NCBI RefSeq assembly: GCF_964194155.1
Contig: NC_135901.1
Location: forward strand, 17,670,001 to 17,734,000
Reading direction: 5' to 3'
DNA length: 64,000 nt
Source of the DNA: Cetorhinus maximus
Taxonomy: Eukaryota
Positions within the stretch are counted from its first letter, which is position 1. Each line of letters opens with the position of its first letter. A program made the position numbers and the translations under genes. The notes beneath the pieces were generated by a model that saw nothing but the letters and a program-made list of their open reading frames with translations, was not told the DNA's origin and made no database searches. This document shows positions 21,081 through 53,521 of the stretch, piece after piece.

Positions 21081-21257
21081 AAGATAAAAATCTACAACAA
21101 TGTGTTTAACACAGCTGATTTATTTGATATATAACCAGAATATTAAACTTCAGTGCAATTATTATCGGCAGAAAGGAACACCAACTGTCAGAATGAACAT
21201 GGTCCAGTCCTGAATGTGATTAACTGCAGCAATAACAGCAGAATCCAACCCCTGCAG

Positions 21258-21764
21258 TCACTTGTGTACTCGCTGGTGCCTCACCAGGTGGGATGACTGA
21301 GTGAACCCTTTCCCACACTCAGAGCAGGTAAACAACCTCTCCCCAGTGTGAACTTGCTGGTGTCTCAGCAGATGGGATGAATGGATGAATGCTTTCCCAC
21401 AGTCGGAGCAGGAGAATGGTCTCTCCCCAGTGTGAACTCTCTGGTGGGCCAGCAGGTGGGCTGACTGACTGAATCCCTTCCCACAGGCAGAGCAGGTGAA
21501 CGGCCTCTCCCCAGTGTGAACTCGCTGGTGTATCCGAAGGTCGGATGAATTAATGAATCCCTTCCCACATGTGGAGCAGGTGAATGGCCTCTCCTCAGTG
21601 TGAGTGATTTGGTGCCTTAGAAGGTCGGATGACCGAGCGAATCCCTTTGGGCACATGGAACAGGGGAACGGTCTCCCCGCAGTGTGAGTGTGTCGATGAG
21701 TTTCCAGCCAGGATGAGTATTTGAATCCCTTCCCACAGTCCCCACATTTCCATGGTTTCCCCAT
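21258..21764 (-). CDS. C2H2 zinc-finger protein, 6 fingers
   Basis: Open [17 protein letters not shown]...HQRVHK*; decayed fingers and leader upstream at 21765-22110. Confidence 0.8.
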
Positions 21765-22124
21765 GGTGCGGGCATCCTTGTGTCTCTCCAGGTTAGGTGA
21801 TCAATTAAAGCCTTGTCCACAAACAGTACACGTGTACAGTTTCTCCTCACTGTGAATGGTATGATGCTTTTTCAGGCTGTGTAACTGGTCAAAGCTCTTT
21901 CCACAGTCAGTGCACTGGAACACTTTCACTCGAGTGTGTGGGTGTCTTTTCCAGTCACGTTGATGCTTGAAATTGTTTCCTCAGACAGAATTGACAAACA
22001 TTTCTCCTTCTACATTCAAGGGCCGATGATATTCAGGTCCTGATGAATTGAGTGGCTCTGACAGATCTTGATAATTGGTTTTAGTTTCCCTTTGACACCC
22101 CAAGCCTGTAAAAAGAGTTTACAT

Positions 22125-26869: not shown

Positions 26870-27335
26870 GATGGGATGAAGCATTTAAGTTATGAAGAGA
26901 GGTTGGATAGACTTGGGTTGTTTTTGTTGGACAAGAGAAGACTGAGGGGTGACCTGATCGAGGTGTACAAGATTATGAGGGGCATGGACCGAGTGGATAG
27001 GGAGCAGCTGTTCCCCTTAGTTGAAGGGTCAGTCACAAGGGGACACAAGTTCAAGGTGAGGGGCAGGAGGTTTAGGGGGGATGTGAGGGAAAACTTTTTT
27101 ACCCAGAGGGTGATGACGGTCTGGAATGCGCTGCCTGGGAGGGTGGTGGAGGCGGGTTGCCTCACATCCTTTAAAAAGTACCTGGATGAGCACTTGGCAT
27201 GTCATAACATTCAAGGCTATGGGCCAAGTGTTGGTAAATGAGATTAGGTAGGTAGGTCAGGTGTTTCTCACGTATCAGTGCAGACTCGATGGGCTGAAGG
27301 GTCTCTTCTGCACCACGTGGTTCTGTGATTCTGTG
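26870..27335 (+). mobile_element. CR1/HER1-like LINE 3' fragment
   Basis: SYEERLDRLGLF...RRLRGDLIEVYKIMRG; tail gtgcagactcgatgggctgaaggg. Confidence 0.85.
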
Positions 27336-27365
27336 ACTGAGAGGATCTTCATCCAGTGATGAAGC

Positions 27366-27674
27366 AACAGTGATGTGTGTCCAGATCTGTAACATTGACT
27401 TACATTTATAACGGTGATGTGTGTCCAAGTCTGTAACATTGACTTACATTTATAACGGTGATGTGTGTCCCAGTCTGTAACATTGACTTACATTTATAAC
27501 AGTGATATGTGTCCCAGTCTGTAGCATTGACTTACATTTATAACAGTGATATGTGTCCTAGTCTGTAACATTGACTTACATTTATAACAGTGATATGTGT
27601 CCTAGTCTATAACATTGACTTACATTTATAACGGTGATATGTGTCCAAGTCTGTAACATTGACTTTCATTTATA
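27366..27674. repeat. 44-bp minisatellite, about 7 copies
   Basis: Unit aac(a/g)gtgat(g/a)tgtgtccNagtctgtaacattgacttacatttat repeats every 44 bp from 27366. Confidence 0.95.
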
Positions 27675-28460
27675 TAGCGCCTTTGCTGTAATCAAACATT
27701 CCAGGGTGTTTTATGGGAGTTTTGCAAAGCAACATCTGACACCAGGACACACGGAGATATCAGGGAAGAAAGTCAAAAGTTTGGTCAAAGAGGTAGGTTT
27801 GAAGGAGTGTCTTAATGAGGAAAGTAAGTTACAGAGATGGAGAGATTTCATGAGGGATATTGTGATTTTTTGCCTTTGGCCAAGCCATGAACACTGAAGG
27901 AACTGAAAATGGGGATGCTGAAGAGACCGGAATTATAAGAGCACAGAGATCTCAGAGGGCTGTGGGGCTGGAGGAGATGACAGAAATAGGGGTGGGCAAA
28001 GCTTTGGAGAGATTTGGAAACAGATGAAAGTTTTAAGATTTGAAGCACTGCTCAACCTGAAGCCTAAGTAGCTCAGTGAGCCTAGAGTAGTGAAGGGTAG
28101 CAGAGTTTTGGATGATCTCAGCTTTACAGAGAGGTTGAATGTGGGATGAATTAGAATAGTCAAATTTAGGGAGTGGAGTGGATGAGAGTTTCAGAAGCAG
28201 ATTAGCTGACTCAGGGGCAAAGCAGGTGAGGTTACTGAGGTGGAAATAGGCGGTGTTCTGTGGTCAGGAGATCAGCTGGGGGGGAAACATGACACTGAGA
28301 TTGTGCCCAGTCTTGTCCAGCCTGGGACAGTTTCCAGGGAGAGGAATGAAGTCAGTGGCGATGGAATAGTTTAGAGCGGGGACTGAAGACAATGTCTTTG
28401 GTCTTCACGATATTTAACTGGAGGAAATTTCTGTTCATCCAGTACTAGGAGTCAGACAAG
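27665..28460 (-). mobile_element. Old L2 LINE fragment
   Basis: Reverse-strand L2 3' end (catttatatagcgcc); inverted paralog of 9580-10800. Confidence 0.7.
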
Positions 28461-28980
28461 TCAGGACGGTTTCAACTTGGAGGGGAACTTGGAAGTGATG
28501 GTGTTCACATACACCTGCTTCTCTGGTCCTTCCAGCTGGTAGAAGTTGAGGGTTTGGAAGTTTCTGTCAAAGTTTAGGTTGTTGTGGATATATAAAATCC
28601 CTCTCCTTTGCCCCCCAATGCTCCCACATCTCAATGTCTGCCTGTTCTCCCTTAGAAGCCAGCGTCCAGGTCCAGATGAGATGGTGGGTCCCTTTCCCTG
28701 AAGGACATTAGTGAACCAGTTGGGCTTTTATGACAATCCAGCAGCTTTCATGGTCACTTTTCCCTAGTGCCGGCCCCACAAATTACCAGATTCATTCAGC
28801 TCAATTTCACAATCTGCCTTTGTGGATTCCCTCACTCACTCCTTTTTCTCTGTTTTAAATCAATTTCACAGGGTATTAGAGGGGAAGAATTTACAGTCAG
28901 GAAATTCAAACCCAACATCACTTCAGGATCTAACAGAGTTGCACGATTTATCATAACCTGAATATTGTCGGATTTTGAAC

Positions 28981-29688
28981 ATGGAAGGAAAAAACACCAT
29001 TCACAGTTGGGAGAAACCGTACACGTGTTCTGTGTGTGGACGAGGCTTCAACCGATCATCTGACCTGTCGAGACACAAGCGCAGTCACACTAAGGAGAAA
29101 CCCTGTAAATGTGAGGACTGTGGGAAAGGATTCAATTTTCCAGTTCAGCTGGAATCTCATCGGCGCAGTCACACCGGGGAGAAGCTGTTCGCCTGCTCCG
29201 AGTGTGGGAAGGGATTCACTCTGTCATGTAACCTGTTGGCTCACCAGCGAGTTCACTCTGATGAGAAACCTTTTAAATGCCCAGACTGTGGGAAGTGCTA
29301 TAAAAGTTCTGGTGAACTGATGCGCCATCAACGTATTCACACTGATGAGAGGCCATTCAGATGCTCTCGGTGCCATACTGGGTTCAGGCAATTATCTGAC
29401 CTCACTGTACACCAGCGAGTTCACACTGGAGAGAGGCCATTCACCTGCTCCGAGTGTGGGAAGGGATTCACTCAGTTAGCCAACCTGCTGACACACCAGC
29501 GCATTCATACTGGTGAGAGGCCATTCACCTGCTCCTTGTGTGGAAAGGGATTCACTACATTATCCAACCAGCTGGAGCACCAGCGAGTTCACACTGGGGA
29601 GAGGCCATTCACCTGCACCGTATGTCAGAAGGGATTTGCTCACTCATCCACCCTGCTGAGACACCAGCAAGTTCACAAAGATGCATGA
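28981..29688 (+). CDS. C2H2 zinc-finger protein, 8 fingers
   Basis: ATG 28981 [23 protein letters not shown]...HQQVHKDA*; acceptor tttcacag ends at 28871. Confidence 0.88.
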
Positions 29689-29953
29689 GAACGCCACCAT
29701 CTTCATGTTTCCCACCAAGCCCCACGCCATCCTGACTTGGAACTATATCGCCGTTCCTTCACTGTCACTGGAAGAAAATCCTGGAACTCCTTTCCTAACA
29801 GCACTGTGGGTGTACCTATCCCACATGGACTGTAGTGATTCAAGAAGGCAGCTCACCAGTACCTTCTCAAGGGAAATTAGGGATAGGCAATAAATGCTGG
29901 CTGAGCCAGTGACACCAGCGACACCCACATCCCATGAACGAATAAGTAAAAAA
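29680..29953 (+). mobile_element. Family-B LINE tail inserted at the ZNF stop codon
   Basis: Matches 1820-2066; begins right after ...gttcacaaag; the ZNF 3' UTR resumes near 29960. Confidence 0.75.
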
Positions 29954-33164: not shown

Positions 33165-34304
33165 TTAACAGAAAAACCCAATCACTTGTGAACTCGCTGA
33201 TGTTTCAGCAGTTTGGATGAGGTTATGAATCCCCTCCCACACTCGGGGCAGCTGAATGGCCTCTCCCCAGTGTGAACTCGCCGGTGTCTCAGCAGGGAGG
33301 ATGTGGTTGTGAATCTCCTCCCACACTCGGGGGCAGCTGAATGGCCTCTCCCCAGTGTGAACTCGCCGGTGTCTCAGCAGGGACGATGTGGTTGTGAATC
33401 CCCTCCCACACTCAGAGCAGGTGAATGGCCTCTCCCCAGTGTGAGTGCGCTGGTGTGTTAACAGGATGGATAAGCGAGTGAATCCCATCCCACACTCTGA
33501 GCAGGTGAATGGTCTCTCCCCATTGTGAATTCGCTGGTGTACAATGAGTTGAGATGATTGTCTGAACCCAGTCCCGCAGTGAGAGCACCTGAACGGTCTC
33601 TCATCGGTGTGAACACGTTGATGGATCATCAGGTCCCCGGAACTTTTAAAGCACTTCCCACAGTCTGGACATTTGAAAGGTCTCTCGTCAGTGTGAACAC
33701 TCTGGTGATTCAGCAGGGTGGATGCGTTAGCAAATCCCTTCCCACACTTGGAGCAGGTGAATGGGCTCTCCCCAGTGTGAATTCGCTGGTGAACAGTGAG
33801 GTGAAATAATGTCTTGAACCCAGTCCCACAGTGCGAGCACCTAAATGGCCTCTCATCAGTGGGAACACGTTGATGGGCAGTCAGTTCCCGGGGACTTTTA
33901 AAGCACTTCCCGCAGTCTGGGCATTTGAAAGGTCTCTCGTCAGTGTGAACTCGCTGGTGTGTCAGCAGGGTGGATGAGCGAACAAATCCCTTCCCACACT
34001 CGGAGCAGGTGAACGGACTCTCCCCAGTGTGAACTCGCCGATGTTTCAGCATGCTGGACGAACAAGTAAATCCCTTCCTACACTCAGGGCAGGTGAACGG
34101 TCTCTCCCCAGTGTGAATTCGTTGATGATTTTCCAGCTCTGATGGGTAATTAAATCCCTTCCCACAGTCCCCACATTTCCACAGTTTCTCCCTGTTGTGA
34201 CTGCATTTATGTTTCAACAGATTAGATGATCGGTTGAAGCCTCGTCCACACACAGAACACGTGTACGGTTTCTCCCCACTGTGAACGGTGCTTTTTCCTT
34301 CCAT
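33165..34304 (-). CDS. C2H2 zinc-finger protein: about 11 in-frame fingers plus 2 lost to a frameshift
   Basis: ATG 34304 [23 protein letters not shown]...; extra G in a G-run near 33330 shifts the frame; the ancestral HK-stop is at about 33182. Confidence 0.8.
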
Positions 34305-34829
34305 GTTCAACTTCCGATGATATTTGGGTGACGATAAGCTGGGCAACTCTGTCAGATCCTAATGTGATGTTTGGTTTCAGTTTCCCAACTGCAAATCCTC
34401 CCCTTCTAATACCCTGTGAAATTGATTTAAAACAGAGAAAAGGGAGTGAGAGAGAAACCACAAAAACAGGTTGTGAAATTGAGCTGAATGAATCTGGTAA
34501 TTTGTGGGGCCGGCACCAGGAAAAAGTGACCATGAAAACTGCTGGATTGTCATAAAAACCCAACTGGTTCACTAATGTCCTTCAGGGAAGGGAATCTGCC
34601 ACCCAGTCTGGGCCTACACAAGGCACCGGCCTAGATGGGAGAAGACAGGAAGAGAGAGAAGGGTCAGGGTGGGAGAGGGAAGGGTTGAAAAAGAGGGATT
34701 ACAACTCAACCAGAATTTTGACAGAAAATCAAAACCCTGAACCTCCACTACCTAGAAGGGCCAGGCTGGGAGGTGTGTGTGAACACCATCACCTCCAAGT
34801 TCCCTTTCAACTCACACACCATCCTGACT

Positions 34830-39450: not shown

Positions 39451-39674
39451 TGCATCATTTGAAAGCTGACTTGTCACAACCTCCAGGAGAAAACTGGACC
39501 TTTCTGTTTGTGGCTTTAAACAGATGAAACCCTGTGGGTGTGAAGCATACGTTTCAACATTTGTTAATGAAATGTGGGAACATGATGAAACAATGCTCAA
39601 ACAATTCATGGGCTGACTTAAATGAATAACTGGGGAGACAGGTACTGTTAACATTAAAACAAGGAGACAAGCCA

Positions 39675-39750
39675 GGTGTCAGCTGTGGCTCAGTTCATAG
39701 CACCCTCGCCTTTGAATCAGAGGGTTGTGGGTTCACGTCCCACTCCTGGA
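39675..39750 (+). mobile_element. tRNA-derived SINE head
   Basis: A-box tggctcagt and B-box-like gggttcacgtccc; related sequence on - at about 59385-59465. Confidence 0.55.
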
Positions 39751-39802
39751 AAAACCAAGAACTGTGATTGTACTCGAAAGAAGTTGGTCTAGGACAGGTT
39801 CA

Positions 39803-39870
39803 GCCTCTTGGCTAAGATCAAGTGTAGTATCTGTTCTTATCTCGGCCTCTTGGCTAAGATCAAGTGTAGT
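39803..39870 (+). pseudogene. RNU2: Two tandem U2 snRNA 5' fragments (U2 nt 12-50, then nt 7-37) forming the leader of Tx1 copy 1
   Basis: gcctcttggctaagatcaagtgtagtatctgttcttatc followed by (tc)tcggcctcttggctaagatcaagtgtagt versus U2 ATCGCTTCTCGGCCTTTTGGCTAAGATCAAGTGTAGTATCTGTTCTTATC; one T>C change in each piece. Confidence 0.93.
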
Positions 39871-39887
39871 GTTGCAGGGGCGACACC

Positions 39888-41450
39888 ATGGTCCTGCCAT
39901 GGCAAGGTCGGGATGGAAGGGCGAAAACCAATCGCAATCCGAATTCATACCGTGGGTTACCTATCACCGTCCGAGTCACGGTGAACCACAGCGACGAAGG
40001 AGGATCACCTATGGATCGGGGCTTCTTCACCAGGAGGATCCTGTTGAAGGCGTGCGGCTTCCAAGCTACGGAGATCTTCACCCTGCACGACTCCCGCAAA
40101 GGTGGTTATTTTGACGTGACGTTCAAGCAAGTGGCAGACTGCGTCCGGCTCCTGAGGGTGTTCGAGGAGAAGAGAGACCTGCCGGAGATGAAGATCCTGA
40201 CGGCGGAGCCGCACTTTTCTCTGCCGTTGCAACGGGAACGTGAGGTGATGGTGCATGTGTACAACCCCTTCGTCCCTGTCGCCGATGTGGTCACCTTCCT
40301 CACCAGGTACTTCGATAAGGTGGGGAGCGGCACTGAGATTCGAGACGACTTGGGGATCTGGACAGGCAAACGCCTGTTTAAGGTCACGCTAAAGACCGAT
40401 GGTAAGGGAGCCATTTTCCACCCTCCTTCCAGTTTCGCTATCGGGGGAAACCGTGGCTACCTGGTCTACGCTGGGCAACCCAAGCATTGTCGCTCATGCG
40501 GCAAGGCTGGTCATGTGGCGGCCAACTGCAGCGCCTCCCTCTGCAAGATCTGCAAACAGGAAGGGCACCAGACAAAAGACTGCAAACAGGCCAAGTGCTG
40601 CAACCTGTGTGGCGAGGCAAGTCACCTCTACAGGACCTGCCCCAAACGCTGCCGTACTTACGCACAGGCAGCCAAAGCCGACCACGGGGAAGCAGAAGAA
40701 ATGTTCCGTGTCACTCCAACCACCAAGGCCCCCAGGGAGCTCAACGGGACAAAGGAGGACACAGAGAGAGACAAGGTGGAGAAAGAGATTGAGGCAACAG
40801 AGAGCCAATCAACAGCACTACCCCCTGAACCTTCCAGTCCTCAGGACAGCGAATCAATGGAGGAGGAGGCAGCAGTGGAAAAGCAGCAGGGGGAGTGGCG
40901 GACGGTGAAGAACAAGAAAAGTAAGAGGGAGCGAAGAAGAAGCAAAGGCGTTTCCCAGAGAAGCGGCAAGAGGCGTCTCCCATCCGACACGGATGACAAG
41001 GGCAGCAGCTCTTCAGATGAGGAAGTGCCAGAGCGGCACCGACAGAAGAGGCGGCAAAGCTCCAGGGCGTTGGAGGACGAGACACCCGAGCTCCAGAAAA
41101 TTGGAGACAACAAGGAGACCAGCGCACCCCAACTTGGCCTGCAACCTGAGGAGGCCAGTGCACCACAGCCCCTGGAATCTGGGAGCAGTGAGGCAATCAT
41201 CGCACCCCAGCTCCAGGAAGCCGGGAACAGCAACCCCCCAGAGGGGGTGAGTTTTGGAGAAGCTTCTCCAGCAAAGGTCATCTCAAAATCCGCTCACTAC
41301 GTGAACCTCCAGATGCCACTGGAGCAGAACACGGCCAAGGAGATCTACCTCAGCCCATCCAAAGTGAAGGAATTTGAGCTCACTACGGGTATGAAGGAGC
41401 AGACTAAAGGTCTGGGACTCTCAGAGACAGTGGGTTTGGTAGGAGAATAA
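39888..41450 (+). CDS. Tx1 ORF1 (ZCCHC3-like N-terminal RNA-binding region plus three CCHC zinc knuckles)
   Basis: CRSCGKAGHVAANC, CKICKQEGHQTKDC, CNLCGEASHLYRTC; basic and acidic disordered C-terminus; 520 aa. Confidence 0.9.
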   Translation: MVLPWQGRDGRAKTNRNPNSYRGLPITVRVTVNHSDEGGSPMDRGFFTRRILLKACGFQATEIFTLHDSRKGGYFDVTFKQVADCVRLLRVFEEKRDLPEMKILTAEPHFSLPLQREREVMVHVYNPFVPVADVVTFLTRYFDKVGSGTEIRDDLGIWTGKRLFKVTLKTDGKGAIFHPPSSFAIGGNRGYLVYAGQPKHCRSCGKAGHVAANCSASLCKICKQEGHQTKDCKQAKCCNLCGEASHLYRTCPKRCRTYAQAAKADHGEAEEMFRVTPTTKAPRELNGTKEDTERDKVEKEIEATESQSTALPPEPSSPQDSESMEEEAAVEKQQGEWRTVKNKKSKRERRRSKGVSQRSGKRRLPSDTDDKGSSSSDEEVPERHRQKRRQSSRALEDETPELQKIGDNKETSAPQLGLQPEEASAPQPLESGSSEAIIAPQLQEAGNSNPPEGVSFGEASPAKVISKSAHYVNLQMPLEQNTAKEIYLSPSKVKEFELTTGMKEQTKGLGLSETVGLVGE

Positions 41451-41460
41451 ATGCTTTAAT

Positions 41461-44400
41461 ATGGGTTTAAAGATTGTATCCATAAATGTGCGTAGCATTA
41501 AATCTACTACGCGATGTGTTGCGACCTTGGACTACCTAGCCAAGGTCAAAGCTGACCTGTTGTTTCTGCAGGAGTGTGCGATACCGCACCTCAGCTCCTA
41601 CAGGCAATGGTCACGATGGTGGTCCCACGGGCCATCGATCTGGTCGGGCGGAAACGACTCTCGTTCCTCCGGCCTGGGTATTCTGCTGCGGGGAGGCAAC
41701 TTCACCGTCTCCGAGGTCAAGGAGGTGGTGGGAGGGCGACTCCTGGTAGCAGACGTAATGTACAAGAACGCTCCACTCCGGTTAATAAACGTGTACGGCC
41801 CGGCACAAGGGGCTGAGCGGCTGGAGGTTTTTCAGCAGCTCCCACTGCTGCTGGCGACCTCCAGGCCGGTCATTCTGGGCGGGGACTTCAACTGCATCAT
41901 CGATGCGGCTGGACGATCCAGCAGGGCCGGAAGCAGATTGGACGCTACGTCCAGATCCCTGATGGAAACAGTTAAGGATGCCAAGCTGCACGACGTCTTC
42001 AGCAACCCTGCAGACGGAGCGCAGCGTAGATACACCTGGTCGCGGCCAGACGGGTCCATTCGTTCCAGGATAGACTTCCTGTTTGTGTCCCGTGCATTCA
42101 CAGTCAGATCCACCGACGTCAAGCCGGTGTTCTTCTCTGACCACTGCCTCCTACTGGCGGACTGCCACTTGGAGGAAGACCTGAGGGTGGGCAGGGGGGC
42201 ATGGAAGCTAAATGTGCAACTGCTGACCCCAGAGAACATTGAGGAGCTCAAGAGGGAGTACAAAGGTTGGAGAACCGTGAAACCCCTCTTTGAGTCCCTG
42301 ACACACTGGTGGGAAGTGATCAAGGGAAGCATCAAGAGGTTTTTCATCCGCAAAGGCACCCAGAAAGCTAGAAAGGAACAGAGGGAAATGTCCCGACTCC
42401 AGGAAAAGATGCAGAATCTGCTCCGGCTGCGGTCGATGGGGGTCGATGTCAAGGAGGAGCTCCAAGAGGTGAAGGGCCAGCAAGCCTCGCACTTTGCCTC
42501 GGAGGCCTCCAAGATCATCTTCCGTTCCAGAGTCCGCTCCGTGGAGCAGGATGAGACGTGCTCACGTTTCTTCTTCCAAAAGGTACACAGAGAGCGCTCT
42601 GTGATCAGCAGCCTGAAGGAAGAAGACGGCTCAGTAAAGTCATCACGGTCCGACATTCTGAGGATCAGCAAATCCTTTTATGCCGGTCTGTATGACGTGA
42701 AGCCCACGGACAGCACGGCCTCCCAGTCCTTCCTGTCCTCTATCACGGAGGTCTTAGACCACAGTACGCGGGAGAGCCTAGACAAACCGCTAACTCCTGA
42801 CGAACTGACTAAGGCCCTCGAGTCCTTCGAGAAGAGTAAAACCCCCGGAAGCGACGGCCTGCCGGCGGAGTTGTATTCGGCTCTGTGGGACTTGATCGGC
42901 CCAGACCTGCTAGAAGTGTACGAGAGTATGCTCCTGGCCGGCAGCATGTCAGAATCCATGAGGAAAGGCATCATCACCCTCATCTACAAGCACAAGGGGG
43001 AAAGGGAGGAAATTAGAAATTGGCGACCCATTTCACTGTTGAATGTGGACTATAAGATTCTGTCCAAGGTCATCGCCAACCGGGTCAAATCCGCTCTGGA
43101 ATTGGTGATTCACCCTGACCAGACCTGCTCTGTGCCAGGCAGGAAGATCTCTGACAGCCTGGCGCTGCTCAGGGATACGATTGCCTATGTACAGGACAGG
43201 GGTGTGGATACCTGCCTCATCAGCTTGGATCAGGAGAAGGCCTTTGACAGAATATCGCACACCTACATGGGGGATGTGCTCTCCAAAATGGGCTTTGGGG
43301 AGGGAATTCGAAATTGGATCCAACTGCTCTACACTAACATCAGTAGCGCAGTCTCAATCAATGGGTGGGAAACAGATAGCTTTCCGATTAAATCTGGAGT
43401 CAGGCAGGGCTGTCCTCTCTCGCCTGTCCTTTTCGTGTGCTGCATAGAACCCTTTGCCGAGTCCATCAGGAAGGATCCGGGCATAAGAGGAGTGACGATC
43501 CCAGGCAGTGGAGGCACTCAGGTAAAAGCCTCCCTGTACATGGACGACGTCGCCGTCTTCTGCTCGGATCCGCTGTCGGTGCGCAGACTGATGCACGTCT
43601 GCGACCAGTTCGAACTGGCCTCGGGAGCCAAGGTAAATCGTGGGAAGAGCGAGGCCATGTTCTTTGGGAACTGGGCTGACCGATCCTTTGTCCCCTTCAC
43701 TGTCAGGGCTGACGGCCTGAAGGTGCTGGGGATATGGTTCGGAGGGACCGGGGCATGCGTTAGAAACTGGAAGGAGCGAGTGGCTATGGTGAAAAGGAAA
43801 CTGGGCATGTGGGAGCGACGCTCCCTCTCCATTGCGGGTAAGAACCTGGTCATCAGGTGTGAGGTACTCTCGCTGTTGCTGTACGTGGCGCAGGTCTGGC
43901 CCATTCCACACTCCTGCGCGATGGCGATCACTCGAGCCATCTTCCGCTTTATCTGGAGGTCGAAAATGGATCGTGTCTGCAGGGACGCGATGTACAAGCC
44001 TCTAGATAAAGGGGGAAAAAACGTGCCCAACATCGCCCTCATACTGATGGCCACCTTTGTGTGTGGCTGCATCAAGCGGTGCGTAGACCCTCAGTACGCA
44101 AACACCAAGTGTCACTACGTGCTGAGGTTCTACCTGTCCCCGGTGTTGCGAAGGATGGGTCTGGCCACGCTGCCGCGGAACGCTCCAAGTAGTTGGACCG
44201 CACCGTACCACCTGTCCCTGGTGGAAAAATTTATGCAGAAAAACACCTTTGACCACAAGTCCATCAGGCAGTGGTCAGCACGTAACGTCCTAGAGGCCCT
44301 GAGGGATAAGGAGAGGGTGGACCCTGTGGGATGGTTCCCCGAGCAGACTGTCAAAGTCATTTGGCAGAATGCCTCATCGCCAGAACTTTCCAACAAGCAC

Positions 44401-44868
44401 CAAGACGTAGCTTGGCTGGTGGTGAGAAAGGCCCTCCCCGTCAGATCCTTCCTACACGCCAGGAGTCTCACCCCCTCTGCACGATGCCCTCGAGGTGGCT
44501 GTGGTGGGGAAGAGACCGTTGTTCACCTCCTTGTGGATTGTGCCTTTGCAAAGAAAGTCTGGAGAGAGATGCAGTGGTTGCTGTCGAGGTTCATCCCGAG
44601 CAGTTCTGTGACACAGGACTCTGTGCTCTACGGGCTGTTCCCAGGGACACACACCGAGACAAACATCGACTGCAGCTGGAGGATCATCAACTCGGTGAAA
44701 GACGCGCTTTGGTCTGCCCGAAACTTGTTGGTCTTCCAGCACAAAGAGTTGTCCCCGACCGATTGTTGCGGACTGGCACAATCCAAAGTCCAGGACTACG
44801 TGCTGAGGGACGCACTAAAGCTTGGGGCAGCTGCCGCAAAGGCGCAATGGGGAAGGGTCGCTGTCTAA
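41461..44868 (+). CDS. Tx1 ORF2: APE endonuclease, reverse transcriptase, C-terminal zinc finger
   Basis: SINVRS, LFLQE, GGDFN, SRIDF, FSDH; NWRPISLLN, LDQEKAFD, GVRQGCPLSP, YMDD; CPRGGC...HLLVDC; 1135 aa uninterrupted. Confidence 0.97.
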   Translation: MGLKIVSINVRSIKSTTRCVATLDYLAKVKADLLFLQECAIPHLSSYRQWSRWWSHGPSIWSGGNDSRSSGLGILLRGGNFTVSEVKEVVGGRLLVADVMYKNAPLRLINVYGPAQGAERLEVFQQLPLLLATSRPVILGGDFNCIIDAAGRSSRAGSRLDATSRSLMETVKDAKLHDVFSNPADGAQRRYTWSRPDGSIRSRIDFLFVSRAFTVRSTDVKPVFFSDHCLLLADCHLEEDLRVGRGAWKLNVQLLTPENIEELKREYKGWRTVKPLFESLTHWWEVIKGSIKRFFIRKGTQKARKEQREMSRLQEKMQNLLRLRSMGVDVKEELQEVKGQQASHFASEASKIIFRSRVRSVEQDETCSRFFFQKVHRERSVISSLKEEDGSVKSSRSDILRISKSFYAGLYDVKPTDSTASQSFLSSITEVLDHSTRESLDKPLTPDELTKALESFEKSKTPGSDGLPAELYSALWDLIGPDLLEVYESMLLAGSMSESMRKGIITLIYKHKGEREEIRNWRPISLLNVDYKILSKVIANRVKSALELVIHPDQTCSVPGRKISDSLALLRDTIAYVQDRGVDTCLISLDQEKAFDRISHTYMGDVLSKMGFGEGIRNWIQLLYTNISSAVSINGWETDSFPIKSGVRQGCPLSPVLFVCCIEPFAESIRKDPGIRGVTIPGSGGTQVKASLYMDDVAVFCSDPLSVRRLMHVCDQFELASGAKVNRGKSEAMFFGNWADRSFVPFTVRADGLKVLGIWFGGTGACVRNWKERVAMVKRKLGMWERRSLSIAGKNLVIRCEVLSLLLYVAQVWPIPHSCAMAITRAIFRFIWRSKMDRVCRDAMYKPLDKGGKNVPNIALILMATFVCGCIKRCVDPQYANTKCHYVLRFYLSPVLRRMGLATLPRNAPSSWTAPYHLSLVEKFMQKNTFDHKSIRQWSARNVLEALRDKERVDPVGWFPEQTVKVIWQNASSPELSNKHQDVAWLVVRKALPVRSFLHARSLTPSARCPRGGCGGEETVVHLLVDCAFAKKVWREMQWLLSRFIPSSSVTQDSVLYGLFPGTHTETNIDCSWRIINSVKDALWSARNLLVFQHKELSPTDCCGLAQSKVQDYVLRDALKLGAAAAKAQWGRVAV

Positions 44869-45103
44869 GACCTTTCTACCACAGCGCACCGAGAGACTGG
44901 GAACTGTTTAGAGCCCCTCGGGCTGTACAGATCAAAATGAAAGGCTGTAAATGATTGTAATATTGTTTGTACTGATGCACCTGGTGATACATTTTGTAAA
45001 AGTTTAACCTGGATTGTACCCTTGTAATGTTGTTTTTGAAATGGTTTTGAATGTGATTGAAGATTTTTTATGAATAAAGTATATTTTTACAAAAAAAAAA
45101 AAA

Positions 45104-45116
45104 GGTTCAGGAGAAT
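45104..45116. repeat. Target-site duplication ggttcaggagaat between the two Tx1 copies
   Basis: Same 13-mer at 50371-50383; partial aggttcag at 39796-39803. Confidence 0.9.
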
Positions 45117-45143
45117 CTCGGCCTTTTGGCTAAGATCAAGTGT
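45116..45143 (+). pseudogene. RNU2: U2 snRNA 5' fragment (nt 7-34) forming the leader of Tx1 copy 2
   Basis: tctcggccttttggctaagatcaagtgt is an exact match to canonical U2. Confidence 0.9.
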
Positions 45144-45158
45144 TGCAGGAGCGACACC

Positions 45159-46721
45159 ATGGTCCTGCCATGGCAAGGTCGGGATGGAAGGGCGAAAACC
45201 AATCGCAATCCGAATTCATACCGTGGGTTACCTATCACCGTCCGAGTCACGGTGAACCACAGCGACGAAGGAGGATCACCTATGGATCGGGGCTTCTTCA
45301 CCAGGAGGATCCTGTTGAAGGCGTGCGGCTTCCAAGCTACGGAGATCTTCACCCTGCACGACTCCCGCAAAGGTGGTTATTTTGACGTGACGTTCAAGCG
45401 AGTGGCAGACTGCGTCCGGCTCCTGAGGGTTTTCGAGGAGAAGAGAGACCTGCCGGAGATGAAGATCCTGACGGCGGAGCCGCACTTTTCTCTGCCGTTG
45501 CAACGGGAACGTGAGGTGATGGTGCATGTGTACAACCCCTTCGTCCCTGTCGCCGACGTGGTCACCTTCCTCACCAGGTACTTCGATAAGGTGGGGAGCG
45601 GCACCGAGATTCGAGACGACTTGGGGATCTGGACAGGCAAACGCCTGTTTAAGGTCACGCTAAAGACCGATGGTAAGGGAGCCATTTTCCACCCTCCCTC
45701 CAGTTTCGCTATCGGGGGAAACCGGGGCTACCTGGTCTACGCTGGGCAACCCAAGCATTGTCGCTCATGCGGCAAGGCTGGTCATGTGGCGGCCAACTGC
45801 AGCGCCTCCCTCTGCAAGATCTGCAAACAGGAAGGGCACCAGACAAAAGACTGCAAACAGGCCAAGTGCTGCAACCTGTGTGGCGAGGCAAGTCACCTCT
45901 ACAGGACCTGCCCCAAACGCTGCCGTACTTACGCACAGGCAGCCAAAGCCGACCACGGGGAAGCAGAAGAAATGTTCCGTGTCACTCCAACCACCAAGGC
46001 CCCCAGGGAGCTCAACGGGACAAAGGAGGACACAGAGAGAGACAAGGTGGAGAAAGAGATTGAGGCAACAGAGAGCCAATCAACAGCACTACCCCCTGAA
46101 CCTTCCAGTCCTCAGGACAGCGAATCAATGGAGGAGGAGGCAGCAGTGGAAAAGCAGCAGGGGGAGTGGCGGACGGTGAAGAACAAGAAAAGTAAGAGGG
46201 AGCGAAGAAGAAGCAAAGGCGTTTCCCAGAGAAGCGGCAAGAGGCGTCTCCCATCCGACACGGATGACAAGGGCAGCAGCTCTTCGGATGATGAAGTGCC
46301 AGAGCGGCACCGACAGAAGAGGCGGCAAAGCTCCAGGGCGTTGGAGGACGAGACACCCGAGCTCCAGAAAATTGGAGACAACAAGGAGCCCAGCGCACCC
46401 CAACTTTGCCCGCAACCTGAGGAGGCCAGTGCACCACAGCCCCTGGAATCTGGGAGCAGTGAGGCAATCATCGCACCCCAGCTCCAGGAAGCCGGGAACA
46501 GCAACCCCCCAGAGGGGGTGAGTTTTGGAGAAGCTTCTCCAGCAAAGGTCATCTCAAAATCCGCTCACTACGTGAACCTCCAGATGCCACTGGAGCAGAA
46601 CACGGCCAAGGAGATCTACCTCAGCCCATCCAAAGTGAAGGAATTTGAGCTCACTACGGGTATGAAGGAGCAGACTAAAGGTCTGGGACTCTCAGAGACA
46701 GTGGGTTTGGTAGGAGAATAA
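45159..46721 (+). CDS. Tx1 ORF1, copy 2
   Basis: ATG at 45159 gives 520 aa; about 5 aa differ from copy 1. Confidence 0.9.
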   Translation: MVLPWQGRDGRAKTNRNPNSYRGLPITVRVTVNHSDEGGSPMDRGFFTRRILLKACGFQATEIFTLHDSRKGGYFDVTFKRVADCVRLLRVFEEKRDLPEMKILTAEPHFSLPLQREREVMVHVYNPFVPVADVVTFLTRYFDKVGSGTEIRDDLGIWTGKRLFKVTLKTDGKGAIFHPPSSFAIGGNRGYLVYAGQPKHCRSCGKAGHVAANCSASLCKICKQEGHQTKDCKQAKCCNLCGEASHLYRTCPKRCRTYAQAAKADHGEAEEMFRVTPTTKAPRELNGTKEDTERDKVEKEIEATESQSTALPPEPSSPQDSESMEEEAAVEKQQGEWRTVKNKKSKRERRRSKGVSQRSGKRRLPSDTDDKGSSSSDDEVPERHRQKRRQSSRALEDETPELQKIGDNKEPSAPQLCPQPEEASAPQPLESGSSEAIIAPQLQEAGNSNPPEGVSFGEASPAKVISKSAHYVNLQMPLEQNTAKEIYLSPSKVKEFELTTGMKEQTKGLGLSETVGLVGE

Positions 46722-46731
46722 ATGCTTTAAT

Positions 46732-49700
46732 ATGGGTTTAAAGATTGTATCCATAAATGTGCGTAGCATTAAATCTACTACGCGATGTGTTGCGACCTTG
46801 GACTACCTAGCCAAGGTCAAAGCTGACCTGTTGTTTCTGCAGGAGTGTGCGATACCGCACCTCAGCTCTTACAGGCAATGGTCACGATGGTGGTCCCACG
46901 GGCCATCGATCTGGTCGGGCGGAAACGACTCTCGTTCCTCCGGCCTGGGTATTCTGCTGCGGGGAGGCAACTTCACCGTCTCCGAGGTCAAGGAGGTGGT
47001 GGGCGGGCGACTCCTGGTAGCAGACGTAATGTACAAGAATGCTCCACTCCGGTTAATTAACGTGTACGGCCCGGCACAAGGGGCTGAGCGGCTGGAGGTT
47101 TTTCAGCAGCTCCCACTGCTGCTGGCGACCTCCAGGCCGGTCATTCTGGGCGGGGACTTCAACTGCATCATCGATGCGGCTGGACGTTCCGGCAGGGCCG
47201 GAAGCAGATTGGACGCTACGTCCAGATCCCTGATGGAAACAGTTAAGGATGCCAAGCTGCACGACGTCTTCAGCAACCCTGCAGACGGAGCGCAGCGTAG
47301 ATACACCTGGTCGCGGCCAGACGGGTCCATTCGTTCCAGGATAGACTTCCTGTTTGTGTCCCGTGCATTCACAGTCAGATCCACCGAGGTCAAGCCGGTG
47401 TTCTTCTCTGACCACTGCCTCCTACTGGCGGACTGCCACTTGGAGGAAGACCTGAGGGTGGGCAGGGGGGCATGGAAGCTAAATGTGCAACTGCTGACCC
47501 CAGAGAACATTGAGGAGCTCAAGAGGGATTACAAAGGTTGGAGAACCGTGAAACCCCTCTTTGAGTCCCTGACACACTGGTGGGAAGTGATCAAGGGAAG
47601 CATCAAGAGGTTTTTCATCCTCAAAGGCACCCAGAAAGCTAGAAAGGAACAGAGGGAAATGTCCCGACTCCAGGAAAAGATGCAGAATCTGCTCCGGCTG
47701 CAGTCGATGGGGGTCGATGTCAAGGAGGAGCTCCAAGAGGTGAAGGGCCAGCAAGCCTCGCACTTTGCCTCGGAGGCCTCCAAGATCATCTTCCGTTCCA
47801 GAGTCCGCTCCGTGGAGCAGGATGAGACGTGCTCACGTTTCTTCTTCCAAAAGGTACACAGAGAGCGCTCTGTGATCAGCAGCCTGAAGGAAGAAGACGG
47901 CTCAGTAAAGTCATCACGGTCCGACATTCTGAGGATCAGCAAATCCTTTTATGCCGGACTGTATGACGTGAAGCCCACGGACAGCACGGCCTCCCAGTCC
48001 TTCCTGTCCTCTATCACGGAGGTCCTAGACCACAGTACGCAGGAGAGCCTAGACAAACCGCTAACTCCTGACGAACTGACTAAGGCCCTCGAGTCCTTCG
48101 AGAAGAGTAAAAGCCCCGGAAGCGACGGCCTGCCGGCGGAGTTGTATTCGGCTCTGTGGGACTTGATCGGCCCAGACCTGCTAGAAGTGTACGAGAGTAT
48201 GCTCCTGGCCGGCAGCATGTCAGAATCCATGAGGAAAGGCATCATCACCCTCATCTACAAGCACAAGGGGGAAAGGGAGGAAATTAGAAATTGGCGACCC
48301 ATTTCACTGTTGAATATGGACTATAAGATTCTGTCCAAGGTCATCGCCAACCGGGTCAAATCCGCTCTGGAATTGGTGATTCACCCTGACCAGACCTGCT
48401 CTGTGCCAGGCAGGAAGATCTCTGACAGCCTGGCGCTGCTCAGGGATACGATTGCCTATGTACAGGACAGGGGTGTGGATACCTGCCTCATCAGCTTGGA
48501 TCAGGAGAAGGCCTTTGACAGAATATCGCACACCTACATGGGGGATGTGCTCTCCAAAATGGGCTTTGGGGAGGGAATTCGAAATTGGATCCAACTGCTC
48601 TACACTAACATCAGTAGCGCAGTCTCAATCAATGGGTGGGAAACAGATAGCTTTCCGATTAAATCTGGAGTCAGGCAGGGCTGCCCTCTCTCGCCTGTCC
48701 TTTTTGTGTGCTGCATAGAACCCTTTGCCGAGTCCATCAGGAAGGATCCGGGCATAAGAGGAGTGACGATCCCAGGCAGTGGAGGCACTCAGGTAAAAGC
48801 CTCCCTGTACATGGACGACGTCGCCGTCTTCTGCTCGGATCCGCTGTCGGTGCGCAGACTGATGCACGTCTGCGACCAGTTCGAACTGGCCTCGGGAGCC
48901 AAGGTAAATCGTGGGAAGAGCGAGGCCATGTTCTTTGGGAACTGGGCTGACCGATCCTTTGTCCCCTTCACTGTCAGGGCTGACGGCCTGAAGGTGCTGG
49001 GGATATGGTTCGGAGGGACCGGGGCATGCGTTAGAAACTGGAAGGAGCGAGTGGCTATGGTGAAAAGGAAACTGGGCATGTGGGAGCGACGCTCCCTCTC
49101 CATTGCGGGTAAGAACCTGGTCATCGGGTGTGAGGTACTCTCGCTGTTGCTGTACGTGGCGCAGGTCTGGCCCATTCCACACTCCTGCGCGATGGCGATC
49201 ACTCGAGCCATCTTCCGCTTTATCTGGAGGTCGAAAATGGATCGTGTCTGCAGGGACGCGATGTACAAGCCTCTAGATAAAGGGGGAAAAAACGTGCCCA
49301 ACATCGCCCTCATACTGATGGCCACCTTTGTGTGTGGCTGCATCAAGCGGTGCGTAGACCCTCAGTACGCAAACACCAAGTGTCACTACGTGCTGAGGTT
49401 CTACCTGTCCCCGGTGTTGCGAAGGATGGGTCTGGCCACGCTGCCGCGGAACGCTCCAAGTAGTTGGACCGTGCCGTACCACCTGTCCCTGGTGGAAAAA
49501 TTTATGCAGAAAAACACCTTTGACCACAAGTCCATCAGGCAGTGGTCAGCACGTAACGTCCTAGAGGCCCTGAGGGATAAGGAGAGGGTGGACCCTGTGG
49601 GATGGTTCCCCGAGCAGACTGTCAAAGTCATTTGGCAGAATGCCTCATCGCCAGAACTTTCCAACAAGCACCAAGACGTAGCTTGGCTGGTGGTGAGAAA

Positions 49701-50139
49701 GGCCCTCCCCGTCAGATCCTTCCTACACGCCAGGAGTCTCACCCCCTCTGCACGTTGCCCTCGAGGTGGCTGTGGTGGGGAAGAGACCGTTGTTCACCTC
49801 CTTGTGGATTGTGCCTTTGCAAAGAAAGTCTGGAGAGAGATGCAGTGGTTGCTGTCGAGGTTCATCCCGAGCAGTTCTGTGACACAGGACTCTGTGCTCT
49901 ACGGGCTGTTCCCAGGGACACACACCGAGACAAACATCGACTGCAGCTGGAGGATCATCAACTCGGTGAAAGACGCGCTTTGGTCTGCCCGAAACTTGTT
50001 GGTCTTCCAGCACAAAGAGTTGTCCCCGACCGATTGTTGCGGACTGGCACAATCCAAAGTCCAGGACTACGTGCTGAGGGACGCACTAAAGCTTGGGGCA
50101 GCTGCCGCAAAGGCGCAATGGGGAAGGGTCGCTGTCTAA
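46732..50139 (+). CDS. Tx1 ORF2, copy 2
   Basis: 1135 aa, intact; about 10 aa differ from copy 1. Confidence 0.97.
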   Translation: MGLKIVSINVRSIKSTTRCVATLDYLAKVKADLLFLQECAIPHLSSYRQWSRWWSHGPSIWSGGNDSRSSGLGILLRGGNFTVSEVKEVVGGRLLVADVMYKNAPLRLINVYGPAQGAERLEVFQQLPLLLATSRPVILGGDFNCIIDAAGRSGRAGSRLDATSRSLMETVKDAKLHDVFSNPADGAQRRYTWSRPDGSIRSRIDFLFVSRAFTVRSTEVKPVFFSDHCLLLADCHLEEDLRVGRGAWKLNVQLLTPENIEELKRDYKGWRTVKPLFESLTHWWEVIKGSIKRFFILKGTQKARKEQREMSRLQEKMQNLLRLQSMGVDVKEELQEVKGQQASHFASEASKIIFRSRVRSVEQDETCSRFFFQKVHRERSVISSLKEEDGSVKSSRSDILRISKSFYAGLYDVKPTDSTASQSFLSSITEVLDHSTQESLDKPLTPDELTKALESFEKSKSPGSDGLPAELYSALWDLIGPDLLEVYESMLLAGSMSESMRKGIITLIYKHKGEREEIRNWRPISLLNMDYKILSKVIANRVKSALELVIHPDQTCSVPGRKISDSLALLRDTIAYVQDRGVDTCLISLDQEKAFDRISHTYMGDVLSKMGFGEGIRNWIQLLYTNISSAVSINGWETDSFPIKSGVRQGCPLSPVLFVCCIEPFAESIRKDPGIRGVTIPGSGGTQVKASLYMDDVAVFCSDPLSVRRLMHVCDQFELASGAKVNRGKSEAMFFGNWADRSFVPFTVRADGLKVLGIWFGGTGACVRNWKERVAMVKRKLGMWERRSLSIAGKNLVIGCEVLSLLLYVAQVWPIPHSCAMAITRAIFRFIWRSKMDRVCRDAMYKPLDKGGKNVPNIALILMATFVCGCIKRCVDPQYANTKCHYVLRFYLSPVLRRMGLATLPRNAPSSWTVPYHLSLVEKFMQKNTFDHKSIRQWSARNVLEALRDKERVDPVGWFPEQTVKVIWQNASSPELSNKHQDVAWLVVRKALPVRSFLHARSLTPSARCPRGGCGGEETVVHLLVDCAFAKKVWREMQWLLSRFIPSSSVTQDSVLYGLFPGTHTETNIDCSWRIINSVKDALWSARNLLVFQHKELSPTDCCGLAQSKVQDYVLRDALKLGAAAAKAQWGRVAV

Positions 50140-50399
50140 GACCTTTCTACCACAGCGCACCGAGAGACTGGGAACTGTTTAGAGCCCCTCGGGCTGTACA
50201 GATCAAAAGGAAAGGCTGTAAATGATTGTAATATTGTTTGTACTGATGCACCTGGTGATACATTTTGTAAAAGTTTAACCTGGATTGTACCCTTGTAATG
50301 TTGTTTTTGAAATGGTTTTGAATGTGATTGAAGATTTTTTATGAATAAAGTATATTTTTACAAAAAAAAAGGTTCAGGAGAATGTCATAATTCAGAATA

Positions 50400-51680: not shown

Positions 51681-52357
51681 GGTCCCCCCTCCTGTGTCCC
51701 TCCCGGCGGCAGCTGGGATCCCGCCTGAGACCCTGAATCAGAGACACAGGAGCTGGAGAACTGAACCCAGGCAGAGGAGAGGGAGGGAGAAAACTGGGAG
51801 TGGAGGAAAGAAATGCTGGAGATGGTGAGATGGGCTTGGATTTCAGCCCAGGGAGGAGGGAGAGTGTGTGGGACGGGGATTTACAGCTTTGGGGGAACAA
51901 GAGAAAAAAGGATGTTCCATAGAAACTAGAATTGTCTGTTCAGAATTTCTGTCCTGGATTTAAAGTGATGACTTTTGTAAACTCGTTTTACAGGGTATGA
52001 AACGGAGGTGACTGGCAGACAGAAAACGCAAAGCAAACATCACATCAAGATCTGTCAGAGGCACTGAATTCATCAGGACCTGAGTATCATCAACTTTTGA
52101 ATGTGGAAGGAGAAATATTTGTCTATTCTGTCTTTGGGAAAGGATTTCAAACATCGGTGTGACTGGAAAAGCCTCAACACACACACACACCCGAGTGAGA
52201 GTGTTCCAGTGAATTGACTTTGGAAAAAACTTTAAGCAGTTACATAGTCTGCAAAAATATCGCACCATTCACAGTGGGGAGAAACTGTTCACGTGTTGTG
52301 TGTGGACAAGGCTTCAACTAATCGTCCAACCTGGAGAGAGACAAGGACCCCCACACC

Positions 52358-53521
52358 ATGGAGAAACCATGGAAATGTATGGACTGTGGGAAGGGATTCA
52401 ATTTCCCATCCCAACTGGAAGTTCATCGGCGCAGTCATACTGGGGAGAGACCATTCACCTGCTTTATCTGTGGGAAGGGATTCACCCATTTGTACAACCT
52501 TCGGACACACCAGCGAGTTCACACTGAGGAGAGGCCGTTCACCTGCCCTGTGTGTGGGAAGGACTTCACTCGGTCATCCCACATTGTGACACACCAACTT
52601 GTTCACACTGATAAGAGACCATTTACATGTCCTGACTGTGAGAAGAGTTTTAAATGCAGAAAAGATCTGCTGATACATCAACGTATTCACACTGGGGAGA
52701 GGCCGTTCACCTGCTCCGTGTGTGGGAAGGGATTCATTCAGTCATCCCACCTTCTGACACATCAACTTGTTCACTCTGATAACAAATTTTTTAATTGTTC
52801 TGACTGTGACAAGAGCTTTAAAAGCAAAAAGGATCTGCTAACACATCAATATACTCACACTGGAGAGAGGCCATTCACCTGTACCAACTGTGGGAAGGGA
52901 TTCAGCCGTCCGTCTGCCCTATTGAATCACCAGCGAACTCACACTGGGGAGAGGCCGTTCACCTGCTCTGACTGTGGGAAGGGATTCATTAATTGATCCA
53001 ACCTTCTAATACACCAGCAACTTCACACAGGGGATAGACTGTTCACCTGCTCTGACTGTGGGAAGGGATTCACCCGTTCATCTAACCTTCTGACACATCA
53101 GCAGGTTCACACTGAGGAGAGACCATTCACTTGCTCTGTGTGTGGGAAGGGATTCACTCGGTCATCCAACCTATTGAATCACCAGCGAGTACACACTGGA
53201 GAGAGGCCGTTCACCTGCTCTGTGTGTGGGAAGGGATTCACTCAGTTATCTAACCTGCTGACACACCAGAGCATTCACAGTGAGGAGAGGCCATTTACCT
53301 GCTCTGTGTGTGGGAAGAGATTTTCTCATTCATCCTATCTGCTGAAACACCAGCGAGTTCACAGTGGGGCGAGGCCGTTCACCTGTAATGCCTGCGGAAA
53401 GGCATTCACTCAGTCATCACACCTGCGAACACACCAGTGGGTTCACAAGCGACTGCAAGGTTTGGATTCTACTCCTGTTGATGCTGTTAATCATACCAGG
53501 ACTGAACCATGTTCATTCTGA
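52358..53521 (+). pseudogene. C2H2 zinc-finger gene (13 fingers) with one in-frame nonsense codon in finger 8
   Basis: ORFs 52358-52996 and 53138-53521 share a frame; a single TGA at 52994-52996 separates them; could encode a 7-finger product. Confidence 0.8.

Follow-up and report, generated by a model that had tools for sequence, protein, structure and literature searches.

A doubled U2 snRNA leader on a Keno-type LINE of Cetorhinus maximus as a probable scar of insertion into a U2 gene

We analyzed a 64,000-nt stretch of the Cetorhinus maximus genome (assembly GCF_964194155.1, contig NC_135901.1, positions 17,670,001 to 17,734,000; "the window"), in which a young, intact Keno-type LINE carries two pieces of U2 snRNA at its 5' end. 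This doubled head probably records a rare insertion into a U2 gene that was completed by end joining, was probably transcribed from the U2 promoter, and was then copied to the window site. More generally, the snRNA pieces at the head of this LINE were likely left behind when ancestors inserted into U1 and U2 genes, and they were added occasionally and not at every jump. By itself, the doubled leader in the window exemplifies a mechanism already described in 2009; what is new is the layered U1/U2 history, the in-gene intermediates, and the use of U1 genes as targets.

Two full-length LINEs lie head to tail in the window, copy 1 at 39803-45103 and copy 2 at 45116-50370 (Table 1). Their bodies are 99.35% identical (34 mismatches in 5220 nt), ORF1 (520 aa) and ORF2 (1135 aa; AP endonuclease, reverse transcriptase [RT], and zf-RVT) are open in both, and the site into which they inserted is not a U2 gene. 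A sequence-only reading of this DNA had described the head of copy 1 as U2 nt 12-50 followed by nt 7-37, with 2 nt common to both, and an exact match to L074, a U2 gene in this genome that is intact and has its promoter, bears it out; both units carry C at nt 16, as L074 does. Rfam detects U2 over 39794-39889 with 38.4 bits (E value, 2.2e-6) against a gathering score of 46, and a scan of the whole window gave no match at the gathering level. Copy 2 bears only one leader, which spans U2 nt 7-34 and has T at nt 16 (read by eye). The 13-bp target site duplication (TSD) around copy 2 (45104-45116 and 50371-50383), which the same reading had equated with the stagger implied by the doubled leader, is real, but the TSD of copy 1 itself measures only 6-8 bp. 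Both TSDs start at the same base, and thus copy 2 was likely inserted before copy 1, which took a regenerated nick site. Elsewhere, the window holds arrays with an 84-nt period on both strands (53-604, 7129-8268, 21179-21814, 28831-29720, 33187-34454, and 52297-53493), presumably of the kind found in C2H2 zinc-finger gene clusters, judging from the period, and a tandem repeat of about nine 44-nt units at 27322-27718. The first five bases of the TSD at 45104-45116, together with the preceding A, match U1 nt 39-44 of gene L338, which could be chance; the SINEU-3 TSD quoted in the accessible text of PMC4494074 begins like the same TSD, which could likewise be chance.

Table 1. Features of the two LINE copies and their surroundings (positions within the window)
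Feature	Position	Strand	Remarks
Short repeat resembling a SINE, immediately upstream of the target site	39674..39786	+	94.7% over 113 nt to the L156 copy
Copy 1 upstream TSD, 7 bp	39797..39803	+	Final base doubles as U2 nt 12
Outer leader unit, U2 nt 12-50	39803..39841	+	Includes nt 38-50 beyond the nick site; exact match to L074
Inner leader unit, U2 nt 7-37	39840..39870	+	Standard J37 leader; exact match; same junction in promoter-bearing U2 genes
U1 snRNA remnant, U1 nt 12-34	39874..39896	+	20/23 identical; holds the ORF1 start codon
Copy 1 ORF1, 520 aa	39888..41450	+	ZCCHC3-type RNA-binding domains and CCHC knuckles
Copy 1 ORF2, 1135 aa	41461..44868	+	AP-type endonuclease, reverse transcriptase, zf-RVT
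Copy 1 poly(A) tail	45091..45103	+	
13-bp TSD between the copies	45104..45116	+	
Copy 2 single leader, U2 nt 7-34	45116..45143	+	J34 type; T at nt 16
Copy 2 ORF1 and ORF2	45159..50139	+	Both open
Copy 2 poly(A) and downstream 13-bp TSD	50362..50383	+	

Searching with the exact leader-element pattern identified 1107 leader-bearing copies genome-wide, with two junction types, J37 and J34; ~97% of them have a single leader. The doubled leader is nonetheless not unique to copy 1. Gap patterns, together with a reading of all U2(20-40) matches, revealed a doubled U2 leader on a young element at 30 loci, representing ~25 events, and this frequency of ~30 per 1107 is a lower bound, the patterns being exact. 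Seventeen of these loci are dispersed with outer units ending at nt 40-57, eight are dispersed with ends at nt 33-39 and little or no duplication, and five are in arrays. Chance or other-repeat matches were dropped from the pattern searches (5 of 19 in the search for the window junction; 3 of 20 and 5 of 5 in others). No doubled leader was present among 49 unselected copies, no copy with three U2 units was seen among the flanks read, and the only match to the window junction, U2(50)/U2(7), in the assembly is the window itself. A G at the 5' end reflects the RNA cap. Among dispersed leaders, 20 of 49 start at U2 nt 1, often preceded by G (several of these G residues may belong to the TSD), as expected for a capped RNA.

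Doubled leaders are scattered over the element tree and do not follow the phylogeny, a comparison that the earlier reading had named as a test: the doubled state requires 22 changes versus 23.0 for shuffled labels, with 172 of 500 shuffles as low. This tree (117 rows, 1350 nt of ORF1) has low resolution and mosaic bodies, and three internally deleted rows that form long branches in it were omitted from the neighbor ranking. The rows closest to copy 1, separated from it by 3-4 differences, are J37 copies with a single leader. Almost all dispersed doubled copies have a private junction and no sibling, and no parent-progeny or sibling pairs emerged, same-junction partners ranking 14, 15, 37, 39, 60, and 72 of 118. 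Older related families, with both U1 and U2+U1 heads, have doubled U2 leaders too (L046/L091; L232, L248, L249, L253, and L335), indicating that stacking recurs in parallel.

Insertions that still lie within U2 genes reveal how the leader is handled at the target. Two U2 promoter types were found, with 12 and 37 matches, plus one variant (L274); one of the 37 second-type matches is a dispersed copy carrying 14 nt of promoter. The 49 promoter-bearing U2 loci comprise 21 intact genes, 18 full-length insertions, 6 truncated insertions, 2 SINE insertions, 1 stacked insertion, and 1 complex locus (L174). All 18 full-length single insertions have one precise leader, with nt 38 onward not repeated, and none (0/18) has a stacked leader. 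Truncated insertions behind the U2 promoter retain U2 to nt 46, 47, 48, 51, 51, and 52 (6/6), and the two SINE insertions retain it to nt 42 and 53; array units carrying one truncated type have instead lost the target to nt 25. Some U2 loci duplicate each other, so the P values reported here overstate the case.

The proposed first nick at U2 37/38 agrees with the 3' sides of these insertions: in both the arrays and the promoter-bearing loci, U2 resumes at nt 38/39 after the element tail. At L294, U2 resumes from ~nt 59/60, marking a second U2 nick site where the same 5-base motif recurs. Of the precise insertions, half (9/18) have the J34 junction, which lacks nt 35-37, indicating that the junction follows the RNA and not the nick. 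Dispersed TSDs range from 5 to 19 bp with a median of 13 (36 of 49 unselected copies with a TSD). Two calls (L107 and L125), inflated by tandem neighbors, were dropped, and the 11 copies without a call yielded only tandem neighbors, 3' transductions, or nothing when longer duplications were sought. Thus, the second nick downstream of 37/38 that had been postulated exists, but its fixed 13-nt stagger is not supported. This variable second nick leaves a trace only where the cDNA lacks a leader that could pair with the gene, and the leader number normally resets to one. As candidate proof that cDNA overwrites the target we considered C at U2 nt 16, present in 6 of 15 full-length inserted promoter-B genes and in 0 of 12 intact ones. 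This was rejected, since L296 joins promoter B to the flank of the other array and recombination can also explain the pattern. U2 variants were noted as well (L072, L078, L047-L049): most promoter-A genes have C at nt 16, two have A at nt 37, and some array leaders have C at nt 25.

As the earlier reading had it, the DNA copies suggest an inserting RNA that already carried a U2 leader. Stacked leaders also occur within snRNA genes. L274, behind a U2 promoter, reads U2(1-40)+U2(14-37)+truncated element; in gene arrays, U2(1-54)+U2(7-34) is found in three units and U2(1-36)+G+U2(1-37) in two. Inside the target gene, a TSD followed by duplicated upstream target is seen in array units L047-L049, L274, and L416. 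We propose the following route. The RNA would start at snRNA +1 and carry U2 nt 1-37 or 1-34, as suggested by the 1107 leader-bearing DNA copies. The endonuclease would nick U2 at 37/38 and, judging from the scars, again at a variable position 5-21 nt downstream. In the usual case, the U2 end of the cDNA would pair with the 5' part of the gene's U2, leaving one precise leader and no duplication. In a few percent of events, microhomology would join the cDNA end at the second nick to give U2(1-x)+leader, the arrangement seen inside genes. Transcription of such a stacked locus and its reinsertion with a slight 5' truncation would give the window structure.

Several observations argue for this two-step route. 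On young leaders, 18 of 18 outer units terminate within nt 40-57, compared to 3 of 12 element-free U2 retrocopies (Fisher P = 1.5e-5, treating loci as independent; all 85 exact U2(20-40) matches, from 75 distinct contexts, were read), and a gap-pattern search of nt 56-72 revealed no outer end there, nor did any coincide with the 3' end of U2. The doubled copy L268 carries U2(38-57) and a truncated element behind its tail, indicating a U2-embedded source locus for its RNA. The tails of L106, L115, and L268 are followed by U2(38-55/57) and a further element; U2-embedded loci with TSD scars thus get transcribed and reinserted. The dispersed copy L265 reads U2(12-57)+U1(14-48)+U2(1-34)+element; its outer pieces end just past the nick site of each gene, and the variants in its U1 piece are those of gene L349. 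Against the two-step route stand the lack of a parent locus, of siblings, and of any stacked full-length insertion behind a U2 promoter, as well as the outer ends, whose median of 46 falls somewhat short of the 50.5 for ends kept in genes (Mann-Whitney P = 0.04, hand-compiled lists), and the eight further loci whose outer units stop at nt 33-39.

The chief competitor, which we regard as unlikely, is a one-step template switch during insertion, in which RT would have jumped from the end of the element RNA to free U2 snRNA at nt 50 via the 2-nt overlap. This is the explanation given for 26 doubled U1 heads on SINEU-2 (Kojima 2015, accessible portion of PMC4494074). It would account for the private junctions of the dispersed doubled copies, for the single-leader J37 copies closest to copy 1, and for the absence of the predicted parent, U2(1-50)+U2(7-37)+element, from the assembly. 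A free RNA template is harder to reconcile, however, with outer ends that all fall at nt 33-57, where the second nick lies, when 9 of 12 element-free retrocopies run past nt 57; with the same stacks in DNA behind U1 and U2 promoters (L274 and L416); and with L265, which would need two jumps, each landing beside that gene's nick site.

It is very improbable that the two units arose by a local accident, whether RT slippage along one RNA, a tandem duplication that followed insertion, or a landing in an existing dispersed U2 fragment: the C at nt 16 common to both window units would fit, as would short partial duplications of the leader start at L027 and L138, but the outer unit holds nt 38-50, absent from the leader, inner and outer U2 alleles differ in L009, L038, L039, and array units, and the TSD encloses both units with no U2 after the tail. 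Least credible of all is a ratchet in which each passage through a U2 gene adds one unit with a fixed 13-nt stagger, so that units count generations; the geometry is right for copy 1, the median TSD is 13 bp, and fixed layers (U1, U2 1-43, and U2 1-54) separate subfamilies, but as a rule it is refuted by the precision of the full-length in-gene insertions, the ~97% of copies with single leaders and absence of triple U2 from the flanks read, the shuffled-label result, and the spread of TSD lengths. The idea of a pedigree of insertions survives on a longer time scale, as fixed U1/U2 layers.

On that longer scale, the same kind of end-joined insertion, in U1 genes, likely gave the element its U1 head and ORF1 start codon before its return to U2. 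The match of window 39874-39896 to U1 has a score of 34, which none of 2000 shuffles reached (maximum, 29), and the ATG of ORF1 is U1 nt 26-28. The first 30 of 227 matches to a U1 5' motif were mostly older relatives beginning at the U1 5' end, the rest being U1 retrocopies; across their first 1.4 kb, these relatives share 84-94% identity with the window element, and Rfam confirmed U1. In alignment, the subfamilies are graded from U1(1-~57, with a 6-nt gap) through a further 6-nt loss to U2(1-54)+U1, then U2(1-43)+U1 remnant, and finally J34 and J37. The U2(1-43)+U1 remnant group consists of seven copies with a fixed leader that includes nt 38-43. ORF1 and ORF2 trees (50 rows, and 47 rows after 3 with short matches were dropped; midpoint root) place the young U2 lineage within the U1-headed grade and older U2-headed families outside. 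By this placement, the young U2-headed lineage would be nested in U1-headed ancestors, and the order of host genes was probably U2-U1-U2.

U1 genes are real targets of this LINE family. Among 30 loci with the U1 promoter motif, 11 are interrupted by an element or SINE (an earlier, tighter pattern gave 8 matches). At L368, the promoter is followed by U1(1-34), an old element, a tail, and then U1 from nt 37; at L416, a U1 promoter precedes U1(1-~45), U2(4-43), and an element. The U1-gene insertions at L407 and L420 are in the opposite orientation. A 3.6-kb array on C14, considered as a U1 gene array, was rejected as a satellite holding an element fragment: at G000:C14:24.55-24.68 Mb (L328-L334), the 3.6-kb satellite contains a U1-headed element fragment, and some units also contain a young truncated LINE.

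Some insertions leave an intact snRNA gene in front. In seven of nine cases, the 3' flank of an intact promoter-A U2 gene continues directly into a leader that begins at U2 +1 and lacks a promoter, followed by the element, tail, U2(38-end), and flank. This geometry is that of a 258-bp duplication, repeated in 5.5-kb arrays with 303 flank-to-U2 junctions, versus 49 promoter-bearing U2 loci. At G000:C30:4.29-4.39 Mb and C29:4.25-4.34 Mb (L050-L057 and L288-L291), at least 16 promoterless U2-LINE units of 5.53 kb lie behind one intact U2 gene. At L384, a single young element sits between two identical 582-bp copies of U1(32-end)+flank, and L385 has the same arrangement with ~785 bp, in tandem. 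The 258-, 582-, and ~785-bp cases are three independent insertions with a distant second nick that left an intact snRNA gene in front. L344/L422 were listed with L384 and L385 for long duplications that leave an intact U1 gene in front. The intact gene in front was presumably selected for, with spread by unequal crossover. Readthrough, "target-restoring" RNA, in which every jump would bring along intact U2, flank, and leader, was rejected as the main source of the promoter-A U2 arrays: none of the 303 junctions is on contigs C1-C28, the first 100 of them are all on C29 and C30, and only L009 shows 3-6 nt of array flank.

The SINE-like repeat upstream of copy 1, for which neither ARAGORN nor Rfam made a call over 39674-39786, also occurs with TSDs in promoter-bearing U1 and U2 genes (L277, L278, L415, L420, and L423). 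Dispersed U2-headed SINE chimeras (L156, L236, L244, and L267) have heads ending at nt 52, 57, 86, and 93. The repeat is likely an incipient SINEU-like element that was probably mobilized by this LINE.

Taken further, these data open up a broader scenario that we offer tentatively and consider possible without favoring it: a promoterless LINE may have borrowed snRNA promoters and shuttled from U2 to U1 and back to U2, each switch being fixed as a 5' layer and U1 sequence now serving as the start of ORF1; SINEU and Tx1-Mar may have been born by a DNA route and not by template switching; and rare, very long duplications with an intact gene in front may have been selected, seeding arrays behind U1 and U2 genes. 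The in-gene intermediates offer a DNA-level route for the SINEU/Tx1-Mar heads, which were published as template switches. Precise, truncated, and stacked insertions behind U1/U2 promoters, open ORFs, and copies more than 99% alike make testable both the transcription of snRNA-headed elements, which Kojima left open in 2015, and the origin of their stacked heads. The 5' end resembles the homology-primed type of R1 and R2, in a vertebrate LINE with an AP endonuclease. A change of host gene is recorded in the element's 5' end, and a host RNA has been turned into a start codon.

Keno, from the 2004 work of Kojima and Fujiwara, is reportedly a U2 gene-specific Tx1-clade LINE. The window element shares with it two ORFs, an AP-type endonuclease and RT, and a poly(A) after which U2 resumes at nt 38/39, where PMC4640811 (accessible text) places the Keno and Utopia insertions. 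Its specificity is looser: the first 49 leader-bearing matches fetched were all (49/49) outside U2 genes, and U1 genes are also hit, whereas in PMC4640811, in the same portion, the U2 entries include Keno and Utopia, and the sole U1 entries are Dada DNA transposons. Among 48 homologues, none was a named Keno or Tx1 element; the best were unnamed amphibian proteins 46% identical, and short matches to shark proteins reached 72-76%. A search of a literature collection with few subscription papers found neither a report of LINE insertion into U1 genes nor one of Keno leaders being stacked. Utopia, with its restriction-like endonuclease and single ORF, does not match the window LINE. Its arrays in Phytophthora, as far as the accessible text describes them, likewise have intact U2 upstream of inserted elements, but lack the 5' U2 fragment and were read as deletions (PMC4640811); here, in contrast, the leader is kept, and the duplication (258, 582, or ~785 bp) is visible on both sides. 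Long duplications are also known for L1, whose TSDs exceed 100 bp in up to 10% of events in HeLa cells (excerpted text of PMC5223499).

In crocodilians, SINEU and the Keno-related Tx1-Mar have stacked U1/U2 heads ascribed to template switching, with transcription left open (Kojima 2015, in the available part of PMC4494074). To that extent, the two systems share recurrent U1/U2 pieces at the 5' end, variable end points, and microhomology; here, however, the intermediates exist in DNA behind snRNA promoters. SINEU is also short and noncoding, while the window element is a 5.2-kb coding LINE. For R2, heteroduplex formation yields uniform junctions, ~5-10% of insertions have tandem 28S duplications, and variant junctions are passed on, so that with time the element can grow at its 5' end (Eickbush et al. 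2013, accessible sections of PMC3774820). Uniform junctions and the model of inherited 5' extension match the LINE studied here, as far as those sections go; R2 differs in having a restriction-like endonuclease and a ribozyme-cut 5' end, whereas here a captured layer supplies the ORF1 start codon.

The closest parallel is R1 of Drosophila. For melanogaster-type R1A in 28S rDNA, 75% of insertions are precise and the rest have a TSD plus duplicated upstream target; the TSD before the duplicated target reaches 17 bp, all truncated insertions have TSDs, precise insertions have a small target deletion, and non-target insertions carry a target piece (Stage and Eickbush 2009, available text of PMC2718515). 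On that description, both elements are AP-endonuclease LINEs; R1 RNA carries upstream target, and the DNA copies suggest that the RNA of the LINE studied here would do so too. Full-length insertions are mostly precise here too (18 precise, 1 complex), and 6 of 6 truncated ones keep TSD-type U2. The systems differ in that the target here is a Pol II snRNA gene, with a leader starting at the gene's +1, that two host genes alternate, and that the rearranged junctions themselves are found retransposed genome-wide. The doubled leader in the window is thus likely an R1-type "insertion site rearrangement" that has itself been retransposed.
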